In this document: positions 2,787-55,852 of the stretch, piece after piece
Numbering within the stretch: the first letter of the stretch is position 1
Layout: each line of letters starts with the position of its first letter
Origin: Candidatus Harrisonbacteria bacterium
GTDB lineage: Bacteria; Patescibacteriota; Minisyncoccia; UBA6257; UBA11618
Assembly: GCA_016867415.1 (NCBI GenBank)
Contig: VGJO01000001.1
Span: 148,312-212,311 of the forward strand
DNA length: 64,000 nucleotides
Direction: 5' to 3'
Notes under the pieces: model-generated
What the model was told of the DNA's origin: nothing
Databases searched by the model: none
Seen by the model: only the letters and a program-made list of their open reading frames with translations
Program-made: the position numbers and the translations under genes

Positions 2787-4442
2787 TCAAAAGAAGAGTT
2801 GAGCTATCTTTATCTCATCATACGAATATCTATCACCTATGATCCTTTTTAATTCTGATAAAGTAAGACCATTCCCATTTCCTTCCCCTGCTGATTGAAC
2901 AATATCTTTAATAGTGAGAATTTTTTTCTCTGATAATTCTTCCTTTATAGCTGACAGATCGAGATCCGGAGAAAGAGAGCGTAATTTAAAAAGGTGATTA
3001 ATAATCGTTTCTTTGGTAAGTTCTCGTTCTTTCGCTATCTCCTTAATATTTTTTCCTTGAAGAAGGAGTTCTTTGGTAAGAGAAAGAGTATTGGAAGCTT
3101 CACCTTTCTCCGCTTTTGTTTTTTTAGATTTCGCTCCCGATCTCGCAAGAAACTCATTCGATCGTTGCTTATAAGTCTCTTCATCAAGGAGCCGGATTTC
3201 CTTTGCGTGCTCCGCCGATATTTTTCGAAAATAATCATCATATTGGAGGACTTCTTCATTCATTCGGAGCGCTCCTTCATTAATTCCTTTGAGAGTGAGA
3301 CCAGCGAGACTCCGTACTCGCGAGAGCGCCACATATCCCATCCCCACCTCAAATGATTTAGAAAGATCAATCTCCGCCGCGTCCATGCTCATTCCTTGAC
3401 TCTTATGAATAGTGATCGCCCAGGCGAGGCGTAGGGGATACTGATTAATCTCGGCGACTTTTCGCCCATTATCTTCAATGATCCAGCTTGTAGGGACTAC
3501 TTTTATCTCTCGTCCGGAAAGAGTCTTCACCTTCACGCCATACTGATCACATTCGACTACCGTCCCGAGAGTGCCGTTCGCGTACCCCTCCTCAAAATTA
3601 TTTTTCACAAACATTACCCGCGCGTCTTTTTTGAGCGTCAGCACCTCGGGCGCGAGACACCCTTTTTTAAGCGCTTCCACCGCCCGATCATTGCCCTTGC
3701 CCGTCATCTTGTAGCTGTAGGCCTTAGTAGGGAGTTTCGCTAATTCCCGCTCATTTTCCCGGTCCACATCCGCATTGTGCGGATAGAGTCGGGTAAGGAC
3801 GCCTTCTCCAGCGCCTTTTCCCATCCTAGAAAAAAGAAGAGCCATCTCTGGATGTTTCACTCGATTATCTCGGATCGCGTTCAAGACTCCTAAATATGCC
3901 TTGTCATTCTGCCGATGTTGTTCCTCTAAGTAGCAAATTTTTAGCCCCATTTTTTTCCACGCCTCCGAGTGGTAAATAAAGAGTGGTTCCTCTTCGCTTC
4001 CTCGAGACACCGGCGGTAGTTGGAAAAAATCCCCGCACAAGATCACCTGCAGTCCGCCAAAAGCTTTCTCCCGTCTTCGTAAAAATCGCGCCACCCGCTC
4101 CACCATGTCGAGCCGGAAGTGATGCAGCATCGACACCTCGTCAATGATAAGTACCGTCGCTTTTTGCATCCGCTTGAAAAGCATCGCTCGCTCCTCAAGC
4201 TCCTCAAGCTCTCGTTCGGAAAGAAAATCCCGGATTCCTAATCCTGACCAAGAGTGAATCGTCGTCCCGCCGATATGTGTTGCCGCAATGCCGGTCGAGG
4301 CCGTGATCTCCGGCTCCACCCCACTTTCTCGAAGATACGCTATATATTGATTAATGACATGCGTCTTACCCGATCCGGCCGGCCCGGTAATAAAAACATT
4401 TTCTCCCGTCTTAAGTATCTTGAGTGCCTCCTCCTGTGTCAT
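2787..4442 (-). CDS. Pif1/RecD-like superfamily 1 helicase with C-terminal helix-turn-helix (HTH_40-like) domain
   Basis: Walker A 'ITGPAGSGKTHV', Pif1-type motifs, C-terminal 'NIKEIAKERELTKETIINHL' HTH; ATG at 4442 preferred over the TTG at 4475 used by the track. Confidence 0.75.
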   Translation of the reverse strand: MTQEEALKILKTGENVFITGPAGSGKTHVINQYIAYLRESGVEPEITASTGIAATHIGGTTIHSWSGLGIRDFLSERELEELEERAMLFKRMQKATVLIIDEVSMLHHFRLDMVERVARFLRRREKAFGGLQVILCGDFFQLPPVSRGSEEEPLFIYHSEAWKKMGLKICYLEEQHRQNDKAYLGVLNAIRDNRVKHPEMALLFSRMGKGAGEGVLTRLYPHNADVDRENERELAKLPTKAYSYKMTGKGNDRAVEALKKGCLAPEVLTLKKDARVMFVKNNFEEGYANGTLGTVVECDQYGVKVKTLSGREIKVVPTSWIIEDNGRKVAEINQYPLRLAWAITIHKSQGMSMDAAEIDLSKSFEVGMGYVALSRVRSLAGLTLKGINEGALRMNEEVLQYDDYFRKISAEHAKEIRLLDEETYKQRSNEFLARSGAKSKKTKAEKGEASNTLSLTKELLLQGKNIKEIAKERELTKETIINHLFKLRSLSPDLDLSAIKEELSEKKILTIKDIVQSAGEGNGNGLTLSELKRIIGDRYSYDEIKIAQLFF

Positions 4443-7156: not shown

Positions 7157-8341
7157 TTACTCAGAGGCTTCTCCTGCACCCATCTCCGTCCTCTTAGCCG
7201 CTTCTTTAATTTCCTTCTCTATTCTCTTAAGTAATTCTGGTTGTTCTTTAAGACTGACTCGTACGTTGTCAAAACCCACTCCGAGTTTAGTGTCCGAGAA
7301 AGAGTAGCTCGCTCCCGATTTAGTCACTACTTTGTATGCTAGACCCGTATTTAAAACATCGGCCTCATAAGAAATTCCTTCTCCATACATAATATCAAAT
7401 TCTGCATTTTTGAAGGGTGGTGCCACTTTATTTTTAACCACCTTTGCCTTCACTCGGTTACCTATAATTGTTTCACCTTTTTTGATCTGGGCCATCCGGC
7501 GAATATCAATCCGGACAGAGGAATAAAATTTGAGTGCCCGGCCGCCCGGCGTGGTCTCTGGTGAGCCAAACATCACCCCAATCTTTTCTCTGAGTTGGTT
7601 GATGAAAATAATCAGCGTATTCGTCTTAGCTGAAATTGCGGTTAGTTTCCGCAAAGCTTGCGACATCATCCGAGCTTGAAGGCCGATAAACTGCTGGCCC
7701 ATCTCTCCTTCAATTTCTGCTTTCGGCGTAAGCGCCGCTACTGAGTCTACTACTACCACGTCAATAATCTCCGATTTCACTAAGCCTTCTAGGATCGAGA
7801 GTGCTTCTTCTCCATTATTAGGTTGGGAGATAATCAGGTCTTTTACCTTCACTCCTAATCGAGCTGCATAGTCCGGATCCATGGCGTGCTCCGCGTCAAT
7901 GAAGGCGCACCGACCGCCTTTTTGCTGTGATTGAGCAATGCAATTAAGAGCTAAAGTTGTCTTTCCTGAAGATTCCGGTCCGAAGACTTCGATGACTCGT
8001 CCTTTTGGCAAGCCGCCGACTCCAAGGGCTAAGTCGAGTGAAAAGGATCCTGTGGGGATTACATCAATATTTACTTTTCGAAGTTCTCCCATCCGCATCA
8101 CTGATCCTTCGCCAAATCGATCCTGTAAATCCTCAATGAGCTTCTGTACTTCGCTGTTTTTCTCCTTCTCCTTTTTCTGATCTGCTGTCTGTGATGAGCC
8201 TCGATCTGAGCGGGCGGCCTGCTCTTTCTCTCGCTTCGCCGCCGCCTTCATATCCTCCTTCTCTTTTTTCTCCTTGTCCATATTTTTATTTGATGGGATT
8301 TTGTAATTCAAAGTTATATCGAATTTTTTCCTCTTATTCAA
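7157..8341 (-). CDS. recA: recombinase RecA with ~55-75 aa lysine/glutamate-rich N-terminal extension
   Basis: 'GSVMRMG', Walker A '[12 protein letters not shown]', 'IDAEHA', L2 loop region; extension MNKRKK...KKEKEKNSE precedes canonical start region. Confidence 0.9.
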
Positions 8342-27415: not shown

Positions 27416-28156
27416 ATGGATTTTCAAAAAATAATTCTTGAGGTAAGAGGCGGCGCTGGTGGCGACGAAGCCGCCATCTTTGCCGCCGACCTTGCCCGCA
27501 TGTATCAGCGCTATGCTGCAAAGCGGAATTGGTATTTTAATGTGATTGAATCCGCCGAGAGCGGTATTGGTGGGATCAAAAATTTTGTCGCTCAAATCCA
27601 GGGCGATAGCGCGTATGACGATTTGAAGCAGGAGTCTGGTGTTCATCGCGTCCAGCGCGTTCCCAAGACGGAAAAAAACGGACGGGTCCATACCTCGACC
27701 GCTACCGTCGCTGTCCTCCCCGAAGTCTCTCCCAAGGAAGTCGAGCTTCGCCAATCCGATATTGAGATGACCTTTTTCCGTTCCTCCGGTCCTGGTGGTC
27801 AAAACGTCAATAAAGTGGAGACTGCTGTCCGCCTCCATCACAAACCCACCGGCATCATTGTCGCTTCTCAAAACGAACGCTCCCAATTAAAAAACCGCGA
27901 AAACGCCGAAGGCATTCTCCGCGCCAAGCTCTATGAAGCAAAGATCGCCGAAGAAACCGCCGCTCTCGGCGCCGACCGCCGCTCCCAAGTGGGAACAGGG
28001 GATAGGAGTGAAAAAATGCGCACCTACAATTTCCCTCAAGACCGCATCACTGACCACCGCGTAGAAAAAAAATTCCACAATATTGAAAAAATAATGGAAG
28101 GTGATCTCGACCCAATCATCAAAGCCTTCAAAAAATCCTCCGAAGAAAATAAATAA
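27416..28156 (+). CDS. class I peptide chain release factor, RF1-like (PKT tripeptide, GGQ) lacking N-terminal domain 1
   Basis: starts at domain-2 equivalent '[17 protein letters not shown]'; '[23 protein letters not shown]'; '[11 protein letters not shown]'; 246 aa vs ~360 for RF1. Confidence 0.75.
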
Positions 28157-28216
28157 GAGAATCTGTGGATAAATTGCCATCTTGGAAAATATATTTTGTC
28201 ATTCATAATTAAGGTA

Positions 28217-28423
28217 ATGTCAAAGAAAAAGAAAAAGGCAGGAAACAGTATGAAGGGAGGCTCTGTCGCAATGCGACTTGGCAGTGAATCTCGGAATCCT
28301 AATTGGCTTGTGAAGTCCATCCTTATTATCTCCATTCTCATTTTGATTGGATTGGTACTTAAGGAATCCTCCCTCGGCCTTGATCTCCTCGCTTCAGCGT
28401 TCACTACTCTCGGATTTAAATAA
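28217..28423 (+). CDS. candidate small basic membrane protein (68 aa)
   Basis: MSKKKKKAGNS... then one TM helix; followed by terminator at 28451. Confidence 0.25.
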   Translation: MSKKKKKAGNSMKGGSVAMRLGSESRNPNWLVKSILIISILILIGLVLKESSLGLDLLASAFTTLGFK

Positions 28424-28450
28424 ATCTTGGTTGTAGGTCACCGCTAACCT

Positions 28451-28487
28451 AAACAAAAACCTCCTTCTCAGAAGGAGGTTTTTGTTT
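28451..28487. terminator. bidirectional terminator aaacaaaaacctcctt-ctcag-aaggaggtttttgttt
   Basis: 8-bp stem with A/T tracts both sides; terminates the minus-strand 16S transcript as well. Confidence 0.7.
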
Positions 28488-28509
28488 AAACTATAATTTC
28501 AATATTCAT

Positions 28510-28631
28510 CACGCTAGCACCCAGCATAAGCGAAGTAATTTTGAGCTTATTTTCGTTCTTCTTTTCTAAAAAGGTACCGGAGCATACTACAGGAAGTATG
28601 TGAGGAACGTTTTTAGAAAAAAGGATGAGCC
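28510..28631 (+). repeat. family-1 element copy (subtype flank aagcgaagtaattttgag; core ggtaccggagcatac-tacaggaa-gtatgtgaggaac); truncated right arm; orphan ccaaaaatacgagc motif at 28717..28731
   Basis: read directly; sits in 16S 3' flank on the opposite strand. Confidence 0.55.
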
Positions 28632-28914
28632 TCCACTACTACTAGATAAACAAAGAAAAAGAAGAAACAGAATAATCAGTAGAAGAGAGATAAGGTCGGC
28701 TACACGAGCGAAAGAAGCCAAAAATACGAGCGAAGATAAATCCTTTCTTGTTGCCCCAAAAGGTTTTGTTTATCAAACAGAGGATAATCAAACAGTAAAG
28801 TAAGTGAACACATCAAACACTTCTTTATCAGTCCGGCATTGCCATTACAATGCTTGGATTTATCGTGTTATCGACTACTTGAGAAAAGAAAACAATAAAG
28901 TTTCTTTTCTTTTC

Positions 28915-30418
<1,504 letters not shown>

Positions 30419-30813
30419 AACATAAGCGAATAATTACTCACATTCATCAAAGATAAACATGAGTAAGTACTGCTTACGTTGTGAATTTGGGACAACAAGA
30501 AAAAATTCATCTTCTTGTCATTGAAATGAATGAGTATCGCTACTCATACATTTCGTTTATGGAATGGTTAGAACTTGGTAAAAAATATCTAAAACATTTT
30601 TTACTAATTCTTAGTTTTTCAGTTATCAATCTGCGACCTTTTATTCTCTAAAAAAGCGGGAAAAAACCACGCTTGATTAGCTAATCAAGGAATATGGGTA
30701 ATTATAGCCGCCGCACCATATAAGTCAAGACCACTTTGGTACTCCAAGTGGCAGCCGACCGTGTGAAGAAAAAAGTAACCTTTTTTCTTTTTATGTGGGG
30801 CTTTTCATTCTGT

Positions 30814-30844
30814 ATCATCATCCTGAATTAAATTCAGGATCCAG
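30814..30844 (+). repeat. family-2 hairpin repeat, subtype B (atcatcatcctgaat-taaa-attcaggatccag)
   Basis: perfect 9-bp palindrome. Confidence 0.6.
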
Positions 30845-30929
30845 ACTTCTGCTGCTTCTGACCACTTCTAATGCCTTTACTCGTTCTTATTTCCTAATCT
30901 TTTCCGCTATACTATGTATTAGTATTTTT

Positions 30930-31056
30930 GCATCTCGCATGCGCAGGATTTTTAAGAAGAGTTTGGTTTATCTTCACGAGTTTCGCACAGGGTATTCTCT
31001 AAAAGTCTGTGAGTACAGAATGCAGTAAAAAATAAAAATATTTCAAAAATACAAGC
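30930..31056 (+). repeat. family-1 element copy (flank gcatctcgcatgcgcaggattttt; core ...gtctgtgagtacagaatgcag; 3' caaaaatacaagc 8 nt before ATG)
   Basis: read directly. Confidence 0.6.
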
Positions 31057-43666: not shown

Positions 43667-43741
43667 AAGGCTTATTCCTTTATTTTTCAATAAAACCCAA
43701 TTTGACCAGCTTCTTTGAGGGGACTATAATTAGGCAAAAAA

Positions 43742-45217
43742 ATGGCTAAAAAAGACGGAAAAGCGAAGGCAAAAACTTCCAAAAAAAGTCCGAATATAAA
43801 AAAACCCGCCAAAGCCGTTTCTCCTAAGAAGCCTACCCCAAAAGCTCCAGCTAAGAGCAAAAAAGACCTGGCATCAACAAAGTCAGCCTCTAGAATAAAA
43901 ATGCCTCATAAGGCTGTTTCTGAGGCCTTAAAAGTTGCTCCTCAGCCTTCCAAAAAATCCCTCCGTCAGGGTCTCGAAAGCGTGAAGGGGATGCACGACA
44001 TCCTCCCCAAGGATCAGCCCTATTGGGAGAAGATGCGCGATGAAGTCCGGTGCGCCGCCTACTTCTACAATTTTTCCCGCATCGATACCCCCATCGTCGA
44101 GCATGCCGCTCTCTTTGAGCGCGGAGCTGGTGAGACGAGCGAGATAGTCGAAAAGCAAATGTATTTTTTGAAGACCGAAGACAAGCTTGTCCTCCGGCCC
44201 GAAAACACCGCCTCCGTTGCCCGCGCCTACATCGAGCACGGTATGAGTCACGAGCCCCAGCCCGTCCGCCTCTATTACTTCGCGCCTATGTTCCGCTATG
44301 AGCAGCCGCAGGAAGGCCGCTTCCGCTCCTTCCACCAGGCAGGTTTTGAGATCTTAGGCGGCGAGAGTGATCCGATTTATGATGCTGAAATCATCCTCAC
44401 CACTTTCCGTCTCTTGGAGTCCTTAAAGCTCTCCAATCTCTCTATCGAAATTAATACCCTAGGCTCTCCTTTTGACCGGGCTATTTATCGCCGCAAGCTG
44501 GTGGATTTTCTAAAAAATAAAAAGCTTTCTAAAGAAGTCCACGCCAAGCTCGATACCAACCCGCTCCGCATCTTAGATAGTAAAGATGAATCCGTAAAAG
44601 AAATTCTAAAAACCGCCCCCAGTATTCTCGACTCGCTTTCCGCTAGCAGCTCCGCCCACTTCAAAGCCGTCTTAGAGTATCTCGACACGCTTGGTCTTCC
44701 TTATACCATCTCCAACAATCTCGTCCGCGGACTTGATTACTATTCCCACACCGTCTTTGAGATTTTTTCCTCCGATTTTAATTTTGCTCTTGCCGCCGGC
44801 GGCCGTTATGACGGCTTAGTGGAGCTCCTTGGCGGGAGAAAGACTCCAGCCGTCGGCTCCGCTATTGGCCTCGAACGTATCGTCCACGTGATGAAAGCGG
44901 CTGGAATAGACTTCAATAATAAAAATAAACCCAAAGTTTTCTTGATCCACGTCGGCGATCTTGCCAAGAAAAAATCATTGGCCCTTTTAGAGACTCTGAA
45001 AAATGCCAATATTTACTGCAAAGAAGCTCTTTCTAAAGACTCGCTCAAAGCCCAGTTGAAACAAGCTGATAAAGAAGGATCTCATCTCGCCCTCATCATG
45101 GGTCAAAAAGAAGCTTTTGAAGAAAGCGTTATCATCCGCGATCTCGAGTCCGGTATCCAAGAGACCGTCCCCATCGATAAACTCATCGAAAAACTCCACC
45201 ACTTCTTAAAGTCGTAA
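43742..45217 (+). CDS. hisS: histidine--tRNA ligase with ~75 aa Lys/Pro/Ala-rich (histone H1-like) N-terminal extension
   Basis: class II motifs 'LRPENTASVARAY', 'YFAPMFRYEQPQEGRFRSFHQAGFEILG', 'AAGGRYDGLV'; extension MAKKDGKAKAKTSKK... Confidence 0.9.
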   Translation: MAKKDGKAKAKTSKKSPNIKKPAKAVSPKKPTPKAPAKSKKDLASTKSASRIKMPHKAVSEALKVAPQPSKKSLRQGLESVKGMHDILPKDQPYWEKMRDEVRCAAYFYNFSRIDTPIVEHAALFERGAGETSEIVEKQMYFLKTEDKLVLRPENTASVARAYIEHGMSHEPQPVRLYYFAPMFRYEQPQEGRFRSFHQAGFEILGGESDPIYDAEIILTTFRLLESLKLSNLSIEINTLGSPFDRAIYRRKLVDFLKNKKLSKEVHAKLDTNPLRILDSKDESVKEILKTAPSILDSLSASSSAHFKAVLEYLDTLGLPYTISNNLVRGLDYYSHTVFEIFSSDFNFALAAGGRYDGLVELLGGRKTPAVGSAIGLERIVHVMKAAGIDFNNKNKPKVFLIHVGDLAKKKSLALLETLKNANIYCKEALSKDSLKAQLKQADKEGSHLALIMGQKEAFEESVIIRDLESGIQETVPIDKLIEKLHHFLKS

Positions 45218-48927: not shown

Positions 48928-50211
48928 ATGGCTTCTTCCCCTTATTATCTGGGTATAGATATAGGATCTTCCACGACTAAGGTGGCCGTAGGTATTTTTT
49001 CCACTGGCCGTTTTTCTTTAGTTAAACTGCTCAAATTTCCCACCCGTGGCGTGAAGCGCGGTCTCATTGATGATATTAAAGAAGCTACCTCTGGTCTCAA
49101 TCCGGTCCTGAGTGAATTAAAGACCACTTATCCTGGCTCGGAAAAAAATATTTTTTTAAGTATTGGGAGTGCCTATATTAATTCTCGCGTCTCCCAAGGC
49201 ATCGTCGCCGTCGCCCGTGCAGATTTTGAAATCGGTCATGATGATATCGATCGCGCTATTTCTTCTGCCTCTGCCATGCGCTTGCCGATCAATCGCACTT
49301 TGATTGGCAAAAGTCTTTTGGAGTATATCGTCGATGGTGTAGGTGAAATCCATAATCCTCTTGGCATGATTGGCAATCGTCTGGAATCCCGTATTCTTTT
49401 AATCGATGTTTTTACTCCCGTCATCAAAAATATTGAGAAAGCTCTTGAGTCCAATGGGGGAGTTATTCGTGGTCACTTTTATTCCGCCCCTGCCGCCGCT
49501 GAATCTGTCCTCACGGAAGAAAAAAAAGAAGAAGGATGTCTCCTCATCGATCTTGGCGCTCACACGACCTCTCTCTCTGTCTTCGAAGAAGGCCGTCTTC
49601 TTCATACTGCCATTCTTCCTTTTGGTTCTTACAATATTACCAATGACTTAGCTATAGGTTTGAAAACTAGCCTCGAGACTGCTGAGATGATTAAATATTC
49701 CTTTGGAGCCGCCTATGCTAAGGATGCCTCTCCCAAAGAAAATATTGATCTGAAACGCCTAGACATTCGTCTCTCCGGTAAAGCCTCTCGTCGCTTCATC
49801 GCTCAGATTATCGAAGCCCGGCTCATGGAGCTTCTCGAATCCATCGTGAATGAGCTCGAAAAGGCTGGCCGCGTCGGAAAACTCCCCGCCGGTGTCATCC
49901 TGGTCGGCGGCGGCGCCAAGCTCCCTGGTATTCTCGACCTCTTCCGCGAAGAGCTTGGTCTTGTCGCTGAGCTTGGTCTCCCGCGCTCTGATCTTTTCCT
50001 CACCTTAGAAGAAAAAGAAGAGGGAAGTGGTGATAAAGAGGTTACTCCTACTAATTCCCCTAGTTTTTACCCCCGTGCTGACGATCCCGAATTCGCCACC
50101 ACTCTTGGTCTTCTCGATCTCGGCCTCAAAGGCTTCCATCTCCATAAAAAATCCAGCGCTTCCCCCTTCAAAAATTTCCTCCTCTGGCTCGCCGACCACT
50201 TCCTCCCCTAA
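48928..50211 (+). CDS. ftsA: cell division protein FtsA
   Basis: actin-fold motifs 'LGIDIGSSTTKVAVG', 'LLIDLGAHTTSLSVF', 'GVILVGGGAKLPGI'. Confidence 0.9.
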   Translation: MASSPYYLGIDIGSSTTKVAVGIFSTGRFSLVKLLKFPTRGVKRGLIDDIKEATSGLNPVLSELKTTYPGSEKNIFLSIGSAYINSRVSQGIVAVARADFEIGHDDIDRAISSASAMRLPINRTLIGKSLLEYIVDGVGEIHNPLGMIGNRLESRILLIDVFTPVIKNIEKALESNGGVIRGHFYSAPAAAESVLTEEKKEEGCLLIDLGAHTTSLSVFEEGRLLHTAILPFGSYNITNDLAIGLKTSLETAEMIKYSFGAAYAKDASPKENIDLKRLDIRLSGKASRRFIAQIIEARLMELLESIVNELEKAGRVGKLPAGVILVGGGAKLPGILDLFREELGLVAELGLPRSDLFLTLEEKEEGSGDKEVTPTNSPSFYPRADDPEFATTLGLLDLGLKGFHLHKKSSASPFKNFLLWLADHFLP

Positions 50212-50704: not shown

Positions 50705-53242
50705 CTACGCCGCCGCAGTTTCAGTAAGATCGTCCTTCGCTTCCTCCCACCGTCCATAATGTTTCAGGACGAGAGTGAGAAAGTTAGACACCACCTGAAT
50801 TCGCGCCCGCCAGAGACTGCACTTCATGGCGTGTGCGAGCTTTGGCTTACCCAAATGCTCTTCGAGGAATCCATTAGCTTCAAGAAGCAGAGCGTCGAAT
50901 GATCCGATCTTAGTCTTCTTCTTAGACTTTACCAAATCATCTTTGCGGGCCTGTTCCTCAGTTTTTTCCTGAGTTTTTGCTGACTCATTCTCATGAGCCC
51001 GCTCTTCTTCTTGCTCCTGAATTTTGAGGAGCTGGGAAAAGACTTCTCGTTGCTCATCTTGCGTACCCATGGTCTCCGACATGTGACAGACAAGTGCCTG
51101 CCGCAGGCGGCCTTGCAGATGCGCTTCTTCCCGTTGACCTTTTTGGAAAAGACTCAAAAGGTAAGCGCCGGCCGTAATCTGACCCCCAGTCTCTTGCTCC
51201 TTTTGCTGGGCTTCAAACAGCATTTCTGCTGAATGAATCCCGCTCTGGAAGCGGGTAAGAAGATCAAAGAATCCTGGTGCCACCTTAAAGAGCATCTCCG
51301 TTTCTGGAGTAGCTTCTCCCGTCTTGCTTTCGAGAAGTCGGAAGAGATCTTCCCGATGTTTGCAAGCTTGTTTGAGAAGCTCATGAGTCTCAGCACGGAG
51401 AGTGGGATCATCGATGAGAAGTCCCTTCTGAGTTGCAAGTGCTTGTTTCATCGCTTGGTAAGGCATTCCCGAGTTGGTAAACCGCCTCTTGCAACCTTCT
51501 GCATCTCCGAAAAACCATGAAAGGAAGTATTTTCGCCGTTTAATATGTCCCGGCTCTTCCTTCTTATCTCCACTATTTGAATCCTCACCTCTTTCCGTCG
51601 ATTGACTTGGAGCAGTATCCACCTTGGTAGTCATTAGTCCTGCCGCCTGCATCCTCTTGATAAAAGAATGCATAGCGAGACTTCCTCGTAAGCGAGAGTG
51701 GGGCTTCACAAGCGTCTCTTCGAGTTTGGCTTCAAAATCAGCCAGCTTTCCGGGGAAAGCTTTCTCAAAGACACTCTTTGCCGCCTCTCTCACGCTTTGT
51801 TCTGGATGAAAAGCGGCAATGAGTCCCACCTCAATGAATGTTCGGCTCCGTCGCATGAGTTCCATGAGTCGGCGGCCGTTGCTCATCTTGATGGTCCAGG
51901 TCTTTTCGAGAAACCAGATGATCATCCGCTGAGCCACTCCCGTCTGCCGGCCTGATTGTTTTTTCACTAATCGGCCTTGGTCGTCGGTCGTGAGAGCAAG
52001 ACAAAAGAGCATTCGTTGTAGGGCCGCCTTTCCTCGGCCAAATCGTTCGAAGTTGACAAGCGTCGCGATGAGATTGATCCAGAAGCTCACGCCCAGATTC
52101 CACTGAGGGCAAAAATCTTTGAGAGATTTGAAAACGGTGGTTTTTGCCAATGCCGTTCCAAATTTATTCTCCGAACTATTTTCCTCGGCCTGCATCTGAG
52201 CAAAGAGCTCATTCTCTTCGACTCGAATCCCCATTACCTCTTTTTGGACATCATTGGACAAAAAGATCATTCCTTTTCTGAATGATTGAGCGCACGCTCT
52301 CTTGTCCACTCGATTGCCCTGGCCAATCCGGTCACGCATCAAGACTTTTCGCTCATAAGCGAGAACGTAGAGAGCGTGAGTGTCGGGGAGTTTCTCGGTG
52401 ATGTAGTATCGGGAAGAAAGCCCTGTCCCTTTCTCTTGCATTCCAAGAAATTGTCCCATCTCTTCTTGGAGCTTTTCTTGGACTATGAGCCCTTTTCCTG
52501 GTGGGAAAAGAGCGATCGTGACGCCGAGAGGCGCCAGCTTTTCAAAGAGAGTCGGCACCATATCCCTATAACTGGGACCGGAGTTGGGAGCCAGCACGAA
52601 GCTTCCCTTAGAAAATCGGATGACCGCCGCTGGAAACAAATGGAATTTGCTCCACTGGTCTTTTGCTACCTCTGGAGTCTCTGGCGCACTTACTGCCTCG
52701 CTTGGAAGATCTTCTTCTTGAGAAGATTTCTCCCTGCCCGGGATTGAGAGAGTCGCAGGCGTTCCTTCGCTTGTTGTTTCATCTTCTGTTTTGACTTCCT
52801 CCTCTTCATTTTTCTTAAACGCGCCCTTCTTGGGCACGAAGAGGTAGCGGATCCCTCCATCCTTGGCAGTCAAGAATCGCGGCATCTGTAGCGTCTCGCC
52901 ACCGCTCCCCAAAACTGGAAGAGAGACAAGCGAAAGCTCACTGTCAGCAAGCGCAGTCTCTTTCTTCTTTGGACTGAGTTTGTTACCGTTTGGCCTCACG
53001 AGTATCCCTTGATGAAGCAGTTCAAAGGCCTGTATGGAGTTGGGATTGAGAGTAATCTCGACTAATCGGTCGCCAGTCTCGGAGAGGCCGACGATATAGG
53101 CGAGGAGAGCGTTTTCTCCCGACATTGGAGCATAGCGCACCGCCATCGCCCATTGTGTCACTAAAGAGATAGAAACCGTTGAGATTATCTCTGCCCCATC
53201 TTCCGTTTCGTCGTTTGGGGAGATTTTTTTCTTTCGGACCAT
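50705..53242 (-). CDS. large hypothetical protein (845 aa), opposite strand, inserted between ftsA and ftsZ
   Basis: uninterrupted ORF, own terminator, AT-rich upstream region; no recognisable catalytic or NTP-binding motif; charged low-complexity patches. Confidence 0.55.
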   Translation of the reverse strand: MVRKKKISPNDETEDGAEIISTVSISLVTQWAMAVRYAPMSGENALLAYIVGLSETGDRLVEITLNPNSIQAFELLHQGILVRPNGNKLSPKKKETALADSELSLVSLPVLGSGGETLQMPRFLTAKDGGIRYLFVPKKGAFKKNEEEEVKTEDETTSEGTPATLSIPGREKSSQEEDLPSEAVSAPETPEVAKDQWSKFHLFPAAVIRFSKGSFVLAPNSGPSYRDMVPTLFEKLAPLGVTIALFPPGKGLIVQEKLQEEMGQFLGMQEKGTGLSSRYYITEKLPDTHALYVLAYERKVLMRDRIGQGNRVDKRACAQSFRKGMIFLSNDVQKEVMGIRVEENELFAQMQAEENSSENKFGTALAKTTVFKSLKDFCPQWNLGVSFWINLIATLVNFERFGRGKAALQRMLFCLALTTDDQGRLVKKQSGRQTGVAQRMIIWFLEKTWTIKMSNGRRLMELMRRSRTFIEVGLIAAFHPEQSVREAAKSVFEKAFPGKLADFEAKLEETLVKPHSRLRGSLAMHSFIKRMQAAGLMTTKVDTAPSQSTERGEDSNSGDKKEEPGHIKRRKYFLSWFFGDAEGCKRRFTNSGMPYQAMKQALATQKGLLIDDPTLRAETHELLKQACKHREDLFRLLESKTGEATPETEMLFKVAPGFFDLLTRFQSGIHSAEMLFEAQQKEQETGGQITAGAYLLSLFQKGQREEAHLQGRLRQALVCHMSETMGTQDEQREVFSQLLKIQEQEEERAHENESAKTQEKTEEQARKDDLVKSKKKTKIGSFDALLLEANGFLEEHLGKPKLAHAMKCSLWRARIQVVSNFLTLVLKHYGRWEEAKDDLTETAAA

Positions 53243-53594
53243 AATTCATCTCACTTTCTGCTTGAGAAATTTTTCAAAGGACGGGCCCATAATTTGCATT
53301 GGGCCCCCTCCAGCACATAGGAGTTCCGATATTATATATATTAATATAAATATGTCAATATTGACTTAAGATAAAATTTATTATTAAATTTATTAGAGTT
53401 CTTTAAAATTTATAAATCTTCTCCAAGATTTTTTCCTCAACCCCCTTTACCGCTTGAGAGATGGAGTAGTGTAAAAAAATCATGAATTCCTCTCAAGCCC
53501 CTTCTTCAAAGAGCAAGATGGATAAAATTGGCAAGCGTGGGCCATCCTTGCTCTTCATTTTTTTGGCTGTGTGGAGTTAATTCTCTTCATGATC

Positions 53595-53624
53595 TCTCCC
53601 TCCGTCTTCGGAGGGATTTTTTAT
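53595..53624 (+). terminator. hairpin ctccctccg-tctt-cggaggg + ATTTTTTAT upstream of ftsZ
   Basis: 7-bp stem, T6. Confidence 0.5.
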
Positions 53625-53650
53625 ATCCCTCTTAAATTACCTGCGTTAGG

Positions 53651-55720
53651 TTGCTTTTCCCACCTTCTTTTTCGTACAATACTCGAAAACAGCTTATGCC
53701 CCCAAAGAAGCAAAAAAAATCCTCTCTGGCAAAGCCTATTTCCAAGCCTTTGGCAAAAAAGAAAGGGAGTGTGAAAAGTCCGCTCGCTATTTTAAGCAAA
53801 TCAATCAGCAAGCCCAAAAAAGCCAAGGCCTTAGTAAAATCAAAAACTTCCTCCGTCAAAAAATCTCCTATTGTAAAGAATTCAATCTCTTCAAAAAAAA
53901 TAATCACTCCCAAAAAGAAAAAAAATTCTCTTAAAAAACCGCCCCACTCTCAAAAGAAGTTTAGTATTCAAAATATTCTTGAAGAGACACCCGTAAAAAA
54001 AATCGAAGATCCTAAAGAAATTGAAGGAGATGAGGAAGAGGAGCGCGACCGCACCCCCCTCATTCATTCCCGAGCTGCTCTTCGCAAGAAATCCACTTCC
54101 AATAATTCTCTCAAGTCCCGTCTTGATTCTCTTATTAATAATAAGAAGCCTATTAATCAAGAAAAATCCGCTTCCTCTGATCGCCGTTCTATCTCAAAGA
54201 CGACGCCTGCCACAGGCGTAGTCGTGAATTCTGCTCGCCCCTCTCTTCGTCCCCGGCCGCTAGTCTCTAATAAAGCCGTTATCAAAGTTGTGGGCGTTGG
54301 CGGCGGCGGCGGGAATGCTATCAGTCGCATGTATGATGATTTCCCTCGCAATATCGAGTTTGTTGCCATTAATACCGATGCTCAAGATCTCGATCACCGC
54401 AAGGCTGACAAGAAAGTCTATATTGGTAAAAATATTACCAAAGGCCTAGGTACTGGTATGAATCCCGAGCTTGGCCGCAAAGCCGCCGAAGAAAATCGCC
54501 ATGAGATAGCCGAGGTGTTGGCCGGCAGTAATCTTGTCTTTGTGACCGCAGGCTTAGGCGGTGGCACTGGCTCCGGCGCCTCGGCCATCGTCGCTGATAT
54601 TGCCAAAGAAGTCGGTGCTCTCGTAATCGCCGTCGTCACCAAGCCCTTCATTTTTGAAGGTGGTGAGCGGGCTCGGATTGCCGATCTTGCTCTCCAAAAA
54701 ATTAAGGAAAAAGTTGATACCTATATAGTAGTTAGTAACGATCGTATCTTTGATATCGTCGGCAAAGACACTTCTATTCATAAAGCTTTCGTCGAGATCG
54801 ACAAGATTCTTCGTGGTGCGGTACAGGGGATCGCCGAGCTTATCGCCATGCCCGGTATTATCAATGTTGACTTCGCTGACGTCCGTACCATTATGGAGCA
54901 CTCCGGTAGTGCTCTCGTCGGCATGGGCCTTGCCGATGGCCCCACCCGTGGCGAAAAAGCCGTCAAAAATGTCCTCAATTTTCCGCTCCTTGATGTCTCT
55001 ATGTTTGGGGCAAAAGGAGTTCTCTTTGGTGTCTCCGGCGGCCGTGATCTCAAAATGACCGAAATTCAGGAAATCGCCCGAGCCATCACGGAAAATATTG
55101 ATTCCTCAGCAAAAGTTATTTTTGGGGCCTATCAAGACCGCAAGCTCCCGCCTGGGACTATTAAAGTCACTTTGATTGCTACTGGTTTTGAAGAATATTC
55201 TGGTGGAAAAGATGTGAAGCATGTCGAATTTCGTGTTGGCTCTCATCTCGCTGTTACTGGCCGTGACAGTTCCGAGCCTCGCCTCGAGCCCAAAAATATT
55301 TTAGAAAATCCCATCGAAGATCGCGTTTCGGCCGCGAGTCTCTCTTCCGCCGATCGTAATTCTTCTTCTCGCCCCTTTTCCATTCCTGAAAAAGAATTAG
55401 CTGAAGAAGAAAAAAAAGAAGAATCTTTTTTTGACTCGCCGCCCCGCCCCCCTTCTTTTTCTCTAAAAGAAAAAGAGATTATTTCTTCTCGACCTACCCC
55501 AGAAAAAAGAGCGGAAGATTTTTTCAAAAACAATGTCCGCGCCCCCTTTGCCGCCCCACCCCGTTCTCTCGAGCTTTCCTCAAAAGAAGCAACTAAAAAT
55601 ACCCCTTCTTTTGGAGACGAAAATGAGCCTCAAGAAATCATTCCTGAAAAAGAAGACCAAAAAAATAAACTCTTTGACATCTGGGATATCCCTGCTTTCT
55701 TGCGCAAGAAAAAGAAATAG
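53651..55720 (+). CDS. ftsZ: cell division GTPase FtsZ with ~215 aa Lys-rich N-terminal extension and long C-terminal tail
   Basis: 'IKVVGVGGGGGNAISRM', 'NTDAQDL', 'AGLGGGTGSGASAIVADIAKE' tubulin signature, 'NVDFADV'; extension MPPKKQKKSSLAKPISKPLAKKKGSVKSP... Confidence 0.9.
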   Translation: MLFPPSFSYNTRKQLMPPKKQKKSSLAKPISKPLAKKKGSVKSPLAILSKSISKPKKAKALVKSKTSSVKKSPIVKNSISSKKIITPKKKKNSLKKPPHSQKKFSIQNILEETPVKKIEDPKEIEGDEEEERDRTPLIHSRAALRKKSTSNNSLKSRLDSLINNKKPINQEKSASSDRRSISKTTPATGVVVNSARPSLRPRPLVSNKAVIKVVGVGGGGGNAISRMYDDFPRNIEFVAINTDAQDLDHRKADKKVYIGKNITKGLGTGMNPELGRKAAEENRHEIAEVLAGSNLVFVTAGLGGGTGSGASAIVADIAKEVGALVIAVVTKPFIFEGGERARIADLALQKIKEKVDTYIVVSNDRIFDIVGKDTSIHKAFVEIDKILRGAVQGIAELIAMPGIINVDFADVRTIMEHSGSALVGMGLADGPTRGEKAVKNVLNFPLLDVSMFGAKGVLFGVSGGRDLKMTEIQEIARAITENIDSSAKVIFGAYQDRKLPPGTIKVTLIATGFEEYSGGKDVKHVEFRVGSHLAVTGRDSSEPRLEPKNILENPIEDRVSAASLSSADRNSSSRPFSIPEKELAEEEKKEESFFDSPPRPPSFSLKEKEIISSRPTPEKRAEDFFKNNVRAPFAAPPRSLELSSKEATKNTPSFGDENEPQEIIPEKEDQKNKLFDIWDIPAFLRKKKK

Positions 55721-55852
55721 ATTGTATATATATTGCGACCCCTCTTGAACGGGAGTATCTTTAAAAAATAAAAATATTTTTTCCCTAAATATTTTCCTAA
55801 AAGTGTTTAAAGGTTGTTTAATTTTTCTTTTTAAAATACAAAAATAAAAAAT

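Follow-up and report, generated by a model that had tools for sequence, protein, structure and literature searches.

In a 64-kb window of a metagenome-assembled genome of Candidatus Harrisonbacteria (Patescibacteria/Parcubacteria), three unrelated core proteins carry long lysine-rich terminal tails: the division protein FtsZ, histidyl-tRNA synthetase (HisRS, encoded by hisS) and ribosomal protein bL31 (encoded by rpmE). By the window we mean the whole stretch of DNA that was analysed; its GC content is 45%. Judging by their coding signal, the tails of FtsZ and HisRS are almost certainly translated, and structure prediction suggests that they are intrinsically disordered low-complexity polycations. 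For these two proteins, the present genome is the long extreme of a graded, clade-wide trait. As far as can be read from the sequence, all three tails resemble histone H1 in composition only; they are neither H1 homologues nor copies of a shared mobile module. We favour, with a probability of roughly 0.55, the reading that they are genuine translated, disordered, lysine-rich low-complexity tails, which represent elongated versions of leaders present throughout the clade and bind polyanions in a non-specific manner.

HisRS, FtsZ, L31 and also RecA of the window are identical to NCBI-annotated Harrisonbacteria proteins. The three tailed proteins are composed as follows (aa, amino acids; pLDDT, predicted local distance difference test).

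53696..55720, + strand: ftsZ, 674 aa from ATG 53696, identical to NCBI MBM3281309.1.
53696..54004, + strand: FtsZ block N1 (aa 1-103), rich in Lys, Ser and Pro (K32 R0 S18 P11), 31% Lys, net charge +30.
54005..54067, + strand: FtsZ block N2 (aa 104-124), acidic patch by composition, net charge -7.
54068..54280, + strand: FtsZ block N3 (aa 125-195), rich in Ser, Asn, Arg and Lys, net charge +13, adjoining core strand S1.
54281..55192, + strand: FtsZ GTPase core and C-terminal domain (aa 196-499) according to Pfam and TIGR00065, pLDDT 85-97.
55193..55717, + strand: FtsZ C-terminal linker, then FtsA-binding peptide and basic tip DIWDIPAFLRKKKK, according to composition and AlphaFold2.
43742..45217, + strand: hisS, 491 aa, recognised by Pfam and TIGR00442.
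43742..43969, + strand: HisRS N-terminal extension (aa 1-76), K22 R2, 29% Lys, net charge +21, with motifs SPNIKK and SPKK.
26944..27270, + strand: rpmE (bL31), 108 aa, NCBI MBM3281285.1; L31 models end at residue 63-65.
27130..27267, + strand: bL31 C-terminal Lys-rich tail (aa 63-108, about 45 residues), net charge +11 by composition.

FtsZ scores 370.6 bits with the equivalog model TIGR00065 (cut-off 295.2) over residues 191-508 of 674, matches Pfam Tubulin and FtsZ_C and contains the GTP-binding motif GVGGGGGN. About 195 residues stand ahead of strand S1. The open frame as such is longer (53651..55720, + strand, 689 aa from a TTG codon, Pfam Tubulin beginning at residue 211 of the frame), and counted from there the extension would have about 210 residues. 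We rejected TTG 53651 and prefer ATG 53696 as the start, given its annotation, the -10-like box located 15 nt upstream and the A-rich codons that follow it. AlphaFold2 models of FtsZ and HisRS were built from alignments of 37-38 relatives. They give residues 1-190 of FtsZ a pLDDT of 37-56 and no secondary structure; within block N1, likewise predicted to lack secondary structure, the values are 43-52. The tail contains the motifs TPKKKK and TPVKK, and Tandem Repeats Finder (minimum score 30, positions 53500-55800) found no tandem repeat in it. At the other end of the protein, an acidic and disordered linker of 158 residues (net charge -7) leads to the tip DIWDIPAFLRKKKK, which agrees with the relatives' consensus for the FtsA-binding peptide; the protein ends with RKKKK. 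The cognate ftsA gene is located in the window at 48928-50211.

HisRS scores 427 bits with TIGR00442 (cut-off 286.75) over residues 80-477, which cover the class II core and the anticodon-binding domain. Its residues 1-85 are modelled with pLDDT of 37-56 (37-40 in the extension), without secondary structure and without any helix. A survey of 48 window genes found long basic Lys-rich terminal segments in FtsZ, HisS and L31 only. With the background Lys frequency of the window (7.2%), the binomial probabilities of the observed Lys counts are 7e-13 for FtsZ, 1e-8 for HisS, 3e-6 for L31 and 1e-4 for RecA. If a Lys-rich appendage is taken to be a terminal, basic segment outside the conserved domain with at least 30% Lys over tens of residues, then block N1 of FtsZ and the tails of HisRS (29%) and bL31 are all assigned to this category. 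Predicted disorder is shared by the FtsZ and HisRS tails, and in the leaders of these two proteins length varies while composition is kept.

The original prediction, made from the bare sequence, thus holds for HisRS (an extension of about 75 aa had been announced), for the similar C-terminal tail of L31 and for the location of the tails on polyanion-facing proteins. The extension of about 215 aa ascribed to FtsZ is real, somewhat shorter, and strongly Lys-rich in block N1 only. The nucleic-acid tethering or condensate formation that it suggested is plausible, but for the short leaders an explanation at the mRNA level competes with it (A-rich, unstructured starts where SD/anti-SD pairing is absent, see below). 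The compositional scan it called for was carried out on the 48 window genes. RecA, to which 55-75 lysine-rich residues had been attributed, has to be removed from the set.

7157..8281, - strand: recA, 374 aa from ATG 8281; NCBI uses ATG 8251, giving 364 aa.
8159..8281, - strand: RecA N-terminal leader, 41 aa, a Lys/Glu polyampholyte of net charge +3, outside the polycationic set.

The RecA leader has 41 or 31 aa depending on the start, is composed of mixed Lys and Glu (net charge +3/+4) and, at net +3, does not qualify as a Lys-rich appendage. Position 8341, from which the longer extension had been counted, is a TTG overlapping the upstream gene, and we rejected it as a start. Between the two remaining candidates, NCBI chose ATG 8251 and other pipelines ATG 8281. 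The minimum free energy (MFE) of the start window is -2.8 kcal/mol at ATG 8281 and -17.4 kcal/mol at ATG 8251; the latter is preceded by an apparent GGAGG, in a genome devoid of the anti-Shine-Dalgarno (anti-SD) sequence, as described below. ATG 8281 is the more likely start, because its window is unstructured like those of other genes, whereas that of ATG 8251 is strongly structured. RecA relatives possess Lys/Glu leaders of 12-30 residues with net charge of about zero.

Several signals speak for translation of the FtsZ and HisRS tails. The FtsZ extension contains no in-frame stop codon, compared with 4-17 stops in the other five frames, and not one of 20000 shuffled versions stayed open; for the shorter HisS extension, 1.3% of shuffles did. 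In-frame codon score of the FtsZ extension is +0.36 (+0.49 in block N3) versus -0.07 or lower in other frames, and the HisS extension likewise scores best of six frames in its annotated one. The proportion of AAA among both lysine codons, AAA/(AAA+AAG), is 0.61 in the FtsZ extension and 0.67 in the genome. Upstream of both annotated starts, we found promoter elements at short distance:

53675..53680, + strand: -10-like hexamer TACAAT, 15 nt upstream of the ftsZ ATG.
43702..43730, + strand: near-consensus promoter TTGACC-17-TATAAT (11/12), ending 11 nt before the hisS ATG.

Throughout the genome, start windows are less structured than gene interiors (mean MFE -5.1 versus -10.0 kcal/mol, p=4e-7) and have raised A content. 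The annotated starts of the two tailed genes conform to this pattern, with MFE of -6.9 and -6.8 kcal/mol and 57% and 40% A. The internal candidates, that is GTG 54224 in ftsZ and ATG 43901 and 43991 in hisS, look like gene interior instead (-9.5 to -16.8 kcal/mol, 7-29% A). In ftsZ, no ATG follows 53696 until after the glycine motif of the GTP-binding site (GGGGGN). In the region 43868-43901 (+ strand) of hisS, a weak promoter-like site, CTGGCA-17-TAGAAT (9/12), ends 4 nt before the internal ATG 43901, the start window of which is structured (-14.7 kcal/mol). It is conceivable that this codon occasionally gives rise to a shorter form of HisRS, the leader of which would have 29 aa.

The survey of orthologous leaders, which covered FtsZ, HisRS and RecA, places the tails into the context of the clade. 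For FtsZ, we inspected the 118 closest clusters with recognisable G-box (60-70% core identity). Their leaders are net-positive in 93% of cases and short (median 16 aa, maximum 60); the overall range of FtsZ leader lengths is 8-192 aa. FtsZ leaders of E. coli, B. subtilis, S. aureus and M. tuberculosis are neutral or acidic when scored for charge. Relatives of HisRS mostly have leaders of 12-38 residues with net charge of +4 to +20, within an overall range of 12-78 aa. Leaders of relatives cannot be aligned with each other, only their composition is kept. In 12 genomes where both genes are present on one contig, the charge of FtsZ leader correlates with that of HisRS leader (Spearman 0.76, p=0.004; 0.69 without the present genome), although with n=12 and no phylogenetic correction. 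For FtsZ to be extended at its N-terminus is nothing unusual: a core search of 1.8 billion representative proteins returned many FtsZ proteins with acidic, Ala/Pro-rich or transit-peptide-like N-extensions, and also others in which a long leader is Lys-rich (126 aa with 35% Lys and net charge +51; 79 aa with 39% Lys). The ortholog survey recommended in the original prediction therefore bore out that basic leaders are found clade-wide, with the long form as their extreme. Its notion of lineage specificity survives in part. The tails are linked to lineage, but they are not special to this genome, since most Parcubacteria carry shorter basic leaders on FtsZ and HisRS and other FtsZ lineages have Lys-rich ones of 79-126 aa.

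A genome-wide peculiarity of translation initiation might be related to these leaders. The 3' end of the 16S rRNA is altered:

28913..28920, - strand: 3' end of 16S rRNA, reading UUUAAUGA, within the Rfam match 28913-30418.

The rRNA ends with GAUCAUUUAAUGA, so that the CCUCC anti-SD is replaced by UUUAA; the corresponding end in E. coli is CCUCCUUA (DNA) or GAUCACCUCCUUA (RNA). In agreement with its loss, a 4-mer resembling the Shine-Dalgarno (SD) sequence occurs at -18..-4 in 1 of the 36 genes surveyed for start-site motifs, whereas 13.7% of randomly chosen positions have one. The sole locus returned by a scan of GTDB species genomes with the FtsZ core, a contig of a related Paceibacterota member (L003), has no SD-like site in 13 genes, and its ftsZ begins with ATG AAG AAA AAA GAA ACA AAA. 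Instead, 13 of the 36 window genes have a TATAAT-like hexamer, which lies 0-15 nt before the start in 12 of them; examples are at 43725-43730, at 53675-53680 and upstream of 17486, 18379 and 23781. This position, together with the little structured start regions, suggests that leaderless or very short-leader mRNAs may be the norm. Gene starts are A-rich as well. Lys accounts for 13.4% of residues at positions 2-12 versus 7.1% elsewhere in the window, and A content is 0.32 in codons 2-15 and 0.26 in the remainder of genes. A practical lesson for annotation follows: because these genomes lack SD sites, SD motifs cannot be used to judge their start sites. No paper on anti-SD loss in the Candidate Phyla Radiation was found in the literature searched.

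We propose the following scenario for the origin and role of the tails. Short basic leaders are common on FtsZ and HisRS in Parcubacteria, and the present tails would be their extreme elongations. At A-rich and unstructured starts, which do not rely on pairing between SD and anti-SD, selection would favour the AAA and AAG codons of Lys right after ATG, and this would seed basic leaders. Such seeding at the mRNA level would also account for the Lys/Glu leader of RecA, encoded by purine-rich codons. Once present and lengthened, a flexible polycation with a charge of +20 to +30 would become a non-specific electrostatic binder of polyanions. In HisRS, the tail would retain tRNA in the vicinity of the enzyme, a role played in eukaryotes by the LysRS appendage, and in bL31 it would contact rRNA. 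The two termini of FtsZ reportedly lie on opposite faces of the protofilament; for this reason, the N-terminal tail should point away from the membrane, towards cytoplasm and nucleoid. There it most likely would bind nucleoid DNA or RNA, or else attach to neighbouring protofilaments by their acidic linkers and cores, thereby promoting bundling.

One may go further and imagine that the cytoplasm-facing arm of FtsZ ties the Z ring to nucleoid or RNA, or drives self-bundling and condensation against its own acidic linker, in place of accessory cross-linkers and positioning factors that reduced genomes may lack. In this extended version, Lys-rich arms on aminoacyl-tRNA synthetases and ribosomal proteins would be a consequence of the SD/anti-SD loss forcing A-rich starts. 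We find it rather doubtful and mention it as a speculation.

Several points weigh against the scenario of elongated polyanion-binding tails. What we infer in it comprises the seeding mechanism and every functional step, in distinction to what was observed or predicted directly (existence of the tails, coding character and disorder of those on FtsZ and HisRS, lack of homology, distribution of FtsZ and HisRS leaders). An effect on initiation could explain only about the first 10-15 codons, which falls well short of 76 or 195 residues. In the FtsZ extension, neither the tandem-repeat search nor the AAA:AAG usage, which is ordinary, gave a sign of slippage that might explain further growth. The closest FtsZ relatives, those with 60-70% core identity, do not have the long version, and the charge correlation between FtsZ and HisRS leaders comes from a small and phylogenetically uncorrected sample. 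A near-identical contig of 9.8 kb (SRR16108676) differs from the window by three single-nucleotide polymorphisms (SNPs), too few for a selection test. Finally, the N-terminal extension that mycobacterial FtsK carries binds anionic lipids and does not work chiefly through DNA (PMC13277299).

The strongest competing explanation is a neutral one, which we regard as possible, though clearly less probable. Here the tails are functionless growths: selection for A-rich starts creates leaders, and drift in a reduced genome with small population lengthens the termini. Such an origin would readily explain why leaders of relatives keep nothing but composition and why FtsZ leaders in close relatives can be as short as 8 aa or as long as 192 aa. 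The co-variation of leader charge between two unrelated proteins of the same genomes points to a cause at the genome level, and RecA leaders, encoded by A/G-rich codons and having no net charge, agree better with a cause acting on the mRNA than with one acting on the protein. Moreover, one of the three SNPs that distinguish the sister population is non-synonymous and falls inside the FtsZ tail (C/A at window position 53988, position 3350 of the other contig), where it changes Thr to Lys and EETPVKK to EEKPVKK. A neutral growth is hard to reconcile with a frame of 195 codons that none of 20000 shuffles kept open, or with the preference of Lys over Arg (32:0 in block N1, K:R ratio of 1.48 in the proteome). 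Long basic tails also appear in just 3 of 48 genes, all of them for proteins that contact polyanions or polymerise, and 600 nt of coding sequence without a use would seldom persist in a streamlined genome. We consider very unlikely that the tails are an artefact of start-site choice, with FtsZ beginning at GTG 54224, HisS at ATG 43901 or 43991 and the Lys-rich stretches being untranslated, the outcome which had been named as a refutation of the original prediction and which is disfavoured in silico. Some gene callers do start HisRS of relatives at the methionine of MHDIL (408 aa), callers disagree on the start of RecA, and the weak promoter-like site (9/12) precedes ATG 43901 by 4 nt. Yet the frames are open and coding-like, the internal candidates have no start signature, and credible start sites exist at the long forms, which NCBI, JGI and other pipelines call. 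There is no ATG between 53696 and the GTP-binding motif. The shortened ftsZ would be preceded by a non-coding stretch of about 980 nt in a compact genome, and in-frame basic leaders persist in dozens of relatives independent of one another.

Two further possibilities concern the nature of the tails. The polycationic tail of FtsZ might bind anionic phospholipids and so anchor or position the Z ring. The net charge of block N1 (+30) is suitable for this purpose, and the mycobacterial FtsK N-extension, which is also long, positive and disordered, does bind cardiolipin and phosphatidic acid (PMC13277299). We nevertheless find this proposal improbable. No amphipathic helix is predicted by AlphaFold2 anywhere in the FtsZ tail, the usual tether is available in the form of FtsA and the conserved FtsA-binding peptide, and an N-terminal anchor would oppose the C-terminal one when the two termini are on opposite faces. 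The tails of HisRS and bL31 would also be left unexplained. Least credible of all is a descent of the tails from a histone-like gene (H1 or Hc1-type) that became joined to several housekeeping genes, an idea which the composition rich in Lys, Ala, Pro and Ser and the few S/TP..KK-type motifs might bring to mind. The four tails and the FtsZ linker, each scanned alone against Pfam at E<=10, gave nothing meaningful, neither from linker-histone nor from Hc1/Hc2 families; the sole match, a HEPN model at 11.5 bits, is meaningless. The FtsZ extension is free of repeats, and relatives show graded leader lengths instead of presence or absence. In the related Paceibacterota locus, ftsA and ftsZ are 74 nt apart with no intervening gene to fuse. 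Origin of the FtsZ tail by fusion with an upstream gene was rejected as well: in that locus ftsZ directly follows ftsA and already possesses a 36-aa Lys-rich leader. Of the original label "histone H1-like", the composition alone remains; S/TP..KK-type motifs number only two in FtsZ and two in HisS. Compared with this and the other alternatives, we prefer the reading of translated tails elongated from clade leaders and binding polyanions.

The surroundings of the tailed genes deserve several remarks. The insertion domain of HisRS (44460-44660, approximately residues 242-303) contains in relatives eight cysteines in CxxC-type pairs, at least 90% conserved and presumably metal-binding; all eight are replaced here. 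The HisRS with these replacements is at the same time the one with the longest Lys-rich leader among relatives. The intergenic region ahead of ftsZ measures 450 nt and contains a weak promoter-like site on the + strand at 53361-53390. It also includes a terminator-like hairpin (53597-53626, + strand; 8-bp stem with 6 GC pairs) with a T-run behind it, some 70 nt upstream of where ftsZ starts. The hairpin may belong to a small transcript or an attenuator; its region has no Rfam match. Between ftsA and ftsZ, an open reading frame of 845 aa (50705-53242, - strand) with a perfect TTGACA-16-TATAAT promoter (53358 to 53331) has no Pfam or NCBIfam match. It has the appearance of having been inserted into the division cluster, because ftsA, ftsZ and a ribonucleotide reductase gene are directly adjacent in the related Paceibacterota locus. 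Downstream of rpmE, a release factor gene (27416-28156, + strand) encodes only 246 aa and keeps the GGQ motif; no open reading frame was found in the 146-nt gap upstream of it. The protein seems to be without the N-terminal domain of about 100 aa, which we take to be usual in RF1/RF2. No 23S rRNA, 5S rRNA or tRNA was matched next to the 16S rRNA gene 28913-30418 (flanks 28200-31000), and the rRNA genes thus appear unlinked.

Lastly, we compare the tails with known systems. Chlamydial Hc1 and Hc2 are bacterial H1-like proteins, and another such protein is AlgP with its KPAA repeats (PMC9239181). The present tails recall the C-terminal tail of histone H1 by their richness in Lys, Ala, Pro and Ser, by disorder (predicted for FtsZ and HisRS) and by occasional motifs of S/TPKK type (SPKK and SPNIKK in HisRS, TPKKKK and TPVKK in FtsZ), a likeness of composition that does not make them members of the family. 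Unlike H1, AlgP, Hc1 and Hc2, they are appendages on enzymes and not free-standing chromatin proteins, and they have neither the globular winged-helix domain (no linker-histone match in Pfam at E<=10) nor an array of KPAA-type repeats. Neither Tandem Repeats Finder in the case of FtsZ nor the Hc1/Hc2 models of Pfam places them among bacterial H1-like repeat proteins.

A closer parallel is offered by the Lys-rich tails of Actinobacteria, namely PAKKA repeats of M. smegmatis Ku (PMC3553676) and lysine repeats of Streptomyces TopA (PMC7398561). Both groups of tails are terminal, basic, of low complexity, lineage-specific, variable in length among orthologues and attached to conserved enzymes. Ku and TopA tails, which modulate nucleic-acid binding, are C-terminal, consist of short repeats and occur on DNA-binding enzymes of high-GC Actinobacteria; the present ones are N-terminal in two of three cases, form no tandem repeat (FtsZ) and are found on FtsZ, a tRNA synthetase and a ribosomal protein of Patescibacteria. 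In general, Lys-rich low-complexity regions mark DNA- and RNA-binding proteins of prokaryotes, and in ribosomal proteins they are taken to contact nucleic acid (PMC6821194).

For HisRS, the relevant counterpart is human LysRS, the disordered Lys-rich N-terminal domain of which interacts with tRNA, increases its non-specific binding and has been described as absent from prokaryotic counterparts (PMC6213541). The HisRS tail is similar in being N-terminal to a class II core, Lys-rich and, by prediction, disordered. It differs in being bacterial, in residing on HisRS and in having no sequence similarity to the LysRS domain. An appended domain of the eukaryotic type would be expected to adopt an amphipathic helix once tRNA is bound and to reduce the Km for tRNA; no helix is predicted for the HisRS tail, in spite of its matching position, Lys-richness and predicted disorder.

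The FtsZ tail shares with the N-extension of mycobacterial FtsK that both are long, cationic, disordered, lineage-specific and placed N-terminally on a core protein of the divisome. The FtsK extension is dispensable for core activity and tunes localisation. FtsK, however, is a membrane DNA translocase whose demonstrated partners are anionic lipids and specific proteins, whereas FtsZ is a cytosolic polymer with its N-terminus probably facing away from the membrane. Within FtsZ itself, charge of the C-terminal variable region controls lateral interactions of filaments, according to the summary of Buske and Levin 2012 given in bioRxiv 10.1101/301622. As described in that summary, this region is basic and comprises 7-10 residues at the C-terminal tip, where the present FtsZ likewise has RKKKK, compared with about 100 residues of net charge +30 at the opposite end here. 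By analogy, a polycation of 100 residues beside an acidic linker should control lateral association of FtsZ more strongly than the C-terminal variable region does.

In the literature searched, we found no account of FtsZ or bacterial HisRS with Lys-rich extensions at the N-terminus, nor of tails of this kind in Patescibacteria. The apparent loss of anti-SD and its possible link to basic leaders is the more unusual thread of the two. If this link holds up in a survey corrected for phylogeny, a change in translation initiation would be tied to proteome-level growth of basic disordered leaders, and this would be of wider interest than the tails as such. As for the tails, the analogies drawn above suggest that those of FtsZ, HisRS and bL31 belong functionally with the appendages of Ku and TopA, of FtsK and of eukaryotic aminoacyl-tRNA synthetases. 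Bacterial FtsZ and HisRS would then represent new hosts for a known device, present in Patescibacteria as a graded and clade-wide trait.

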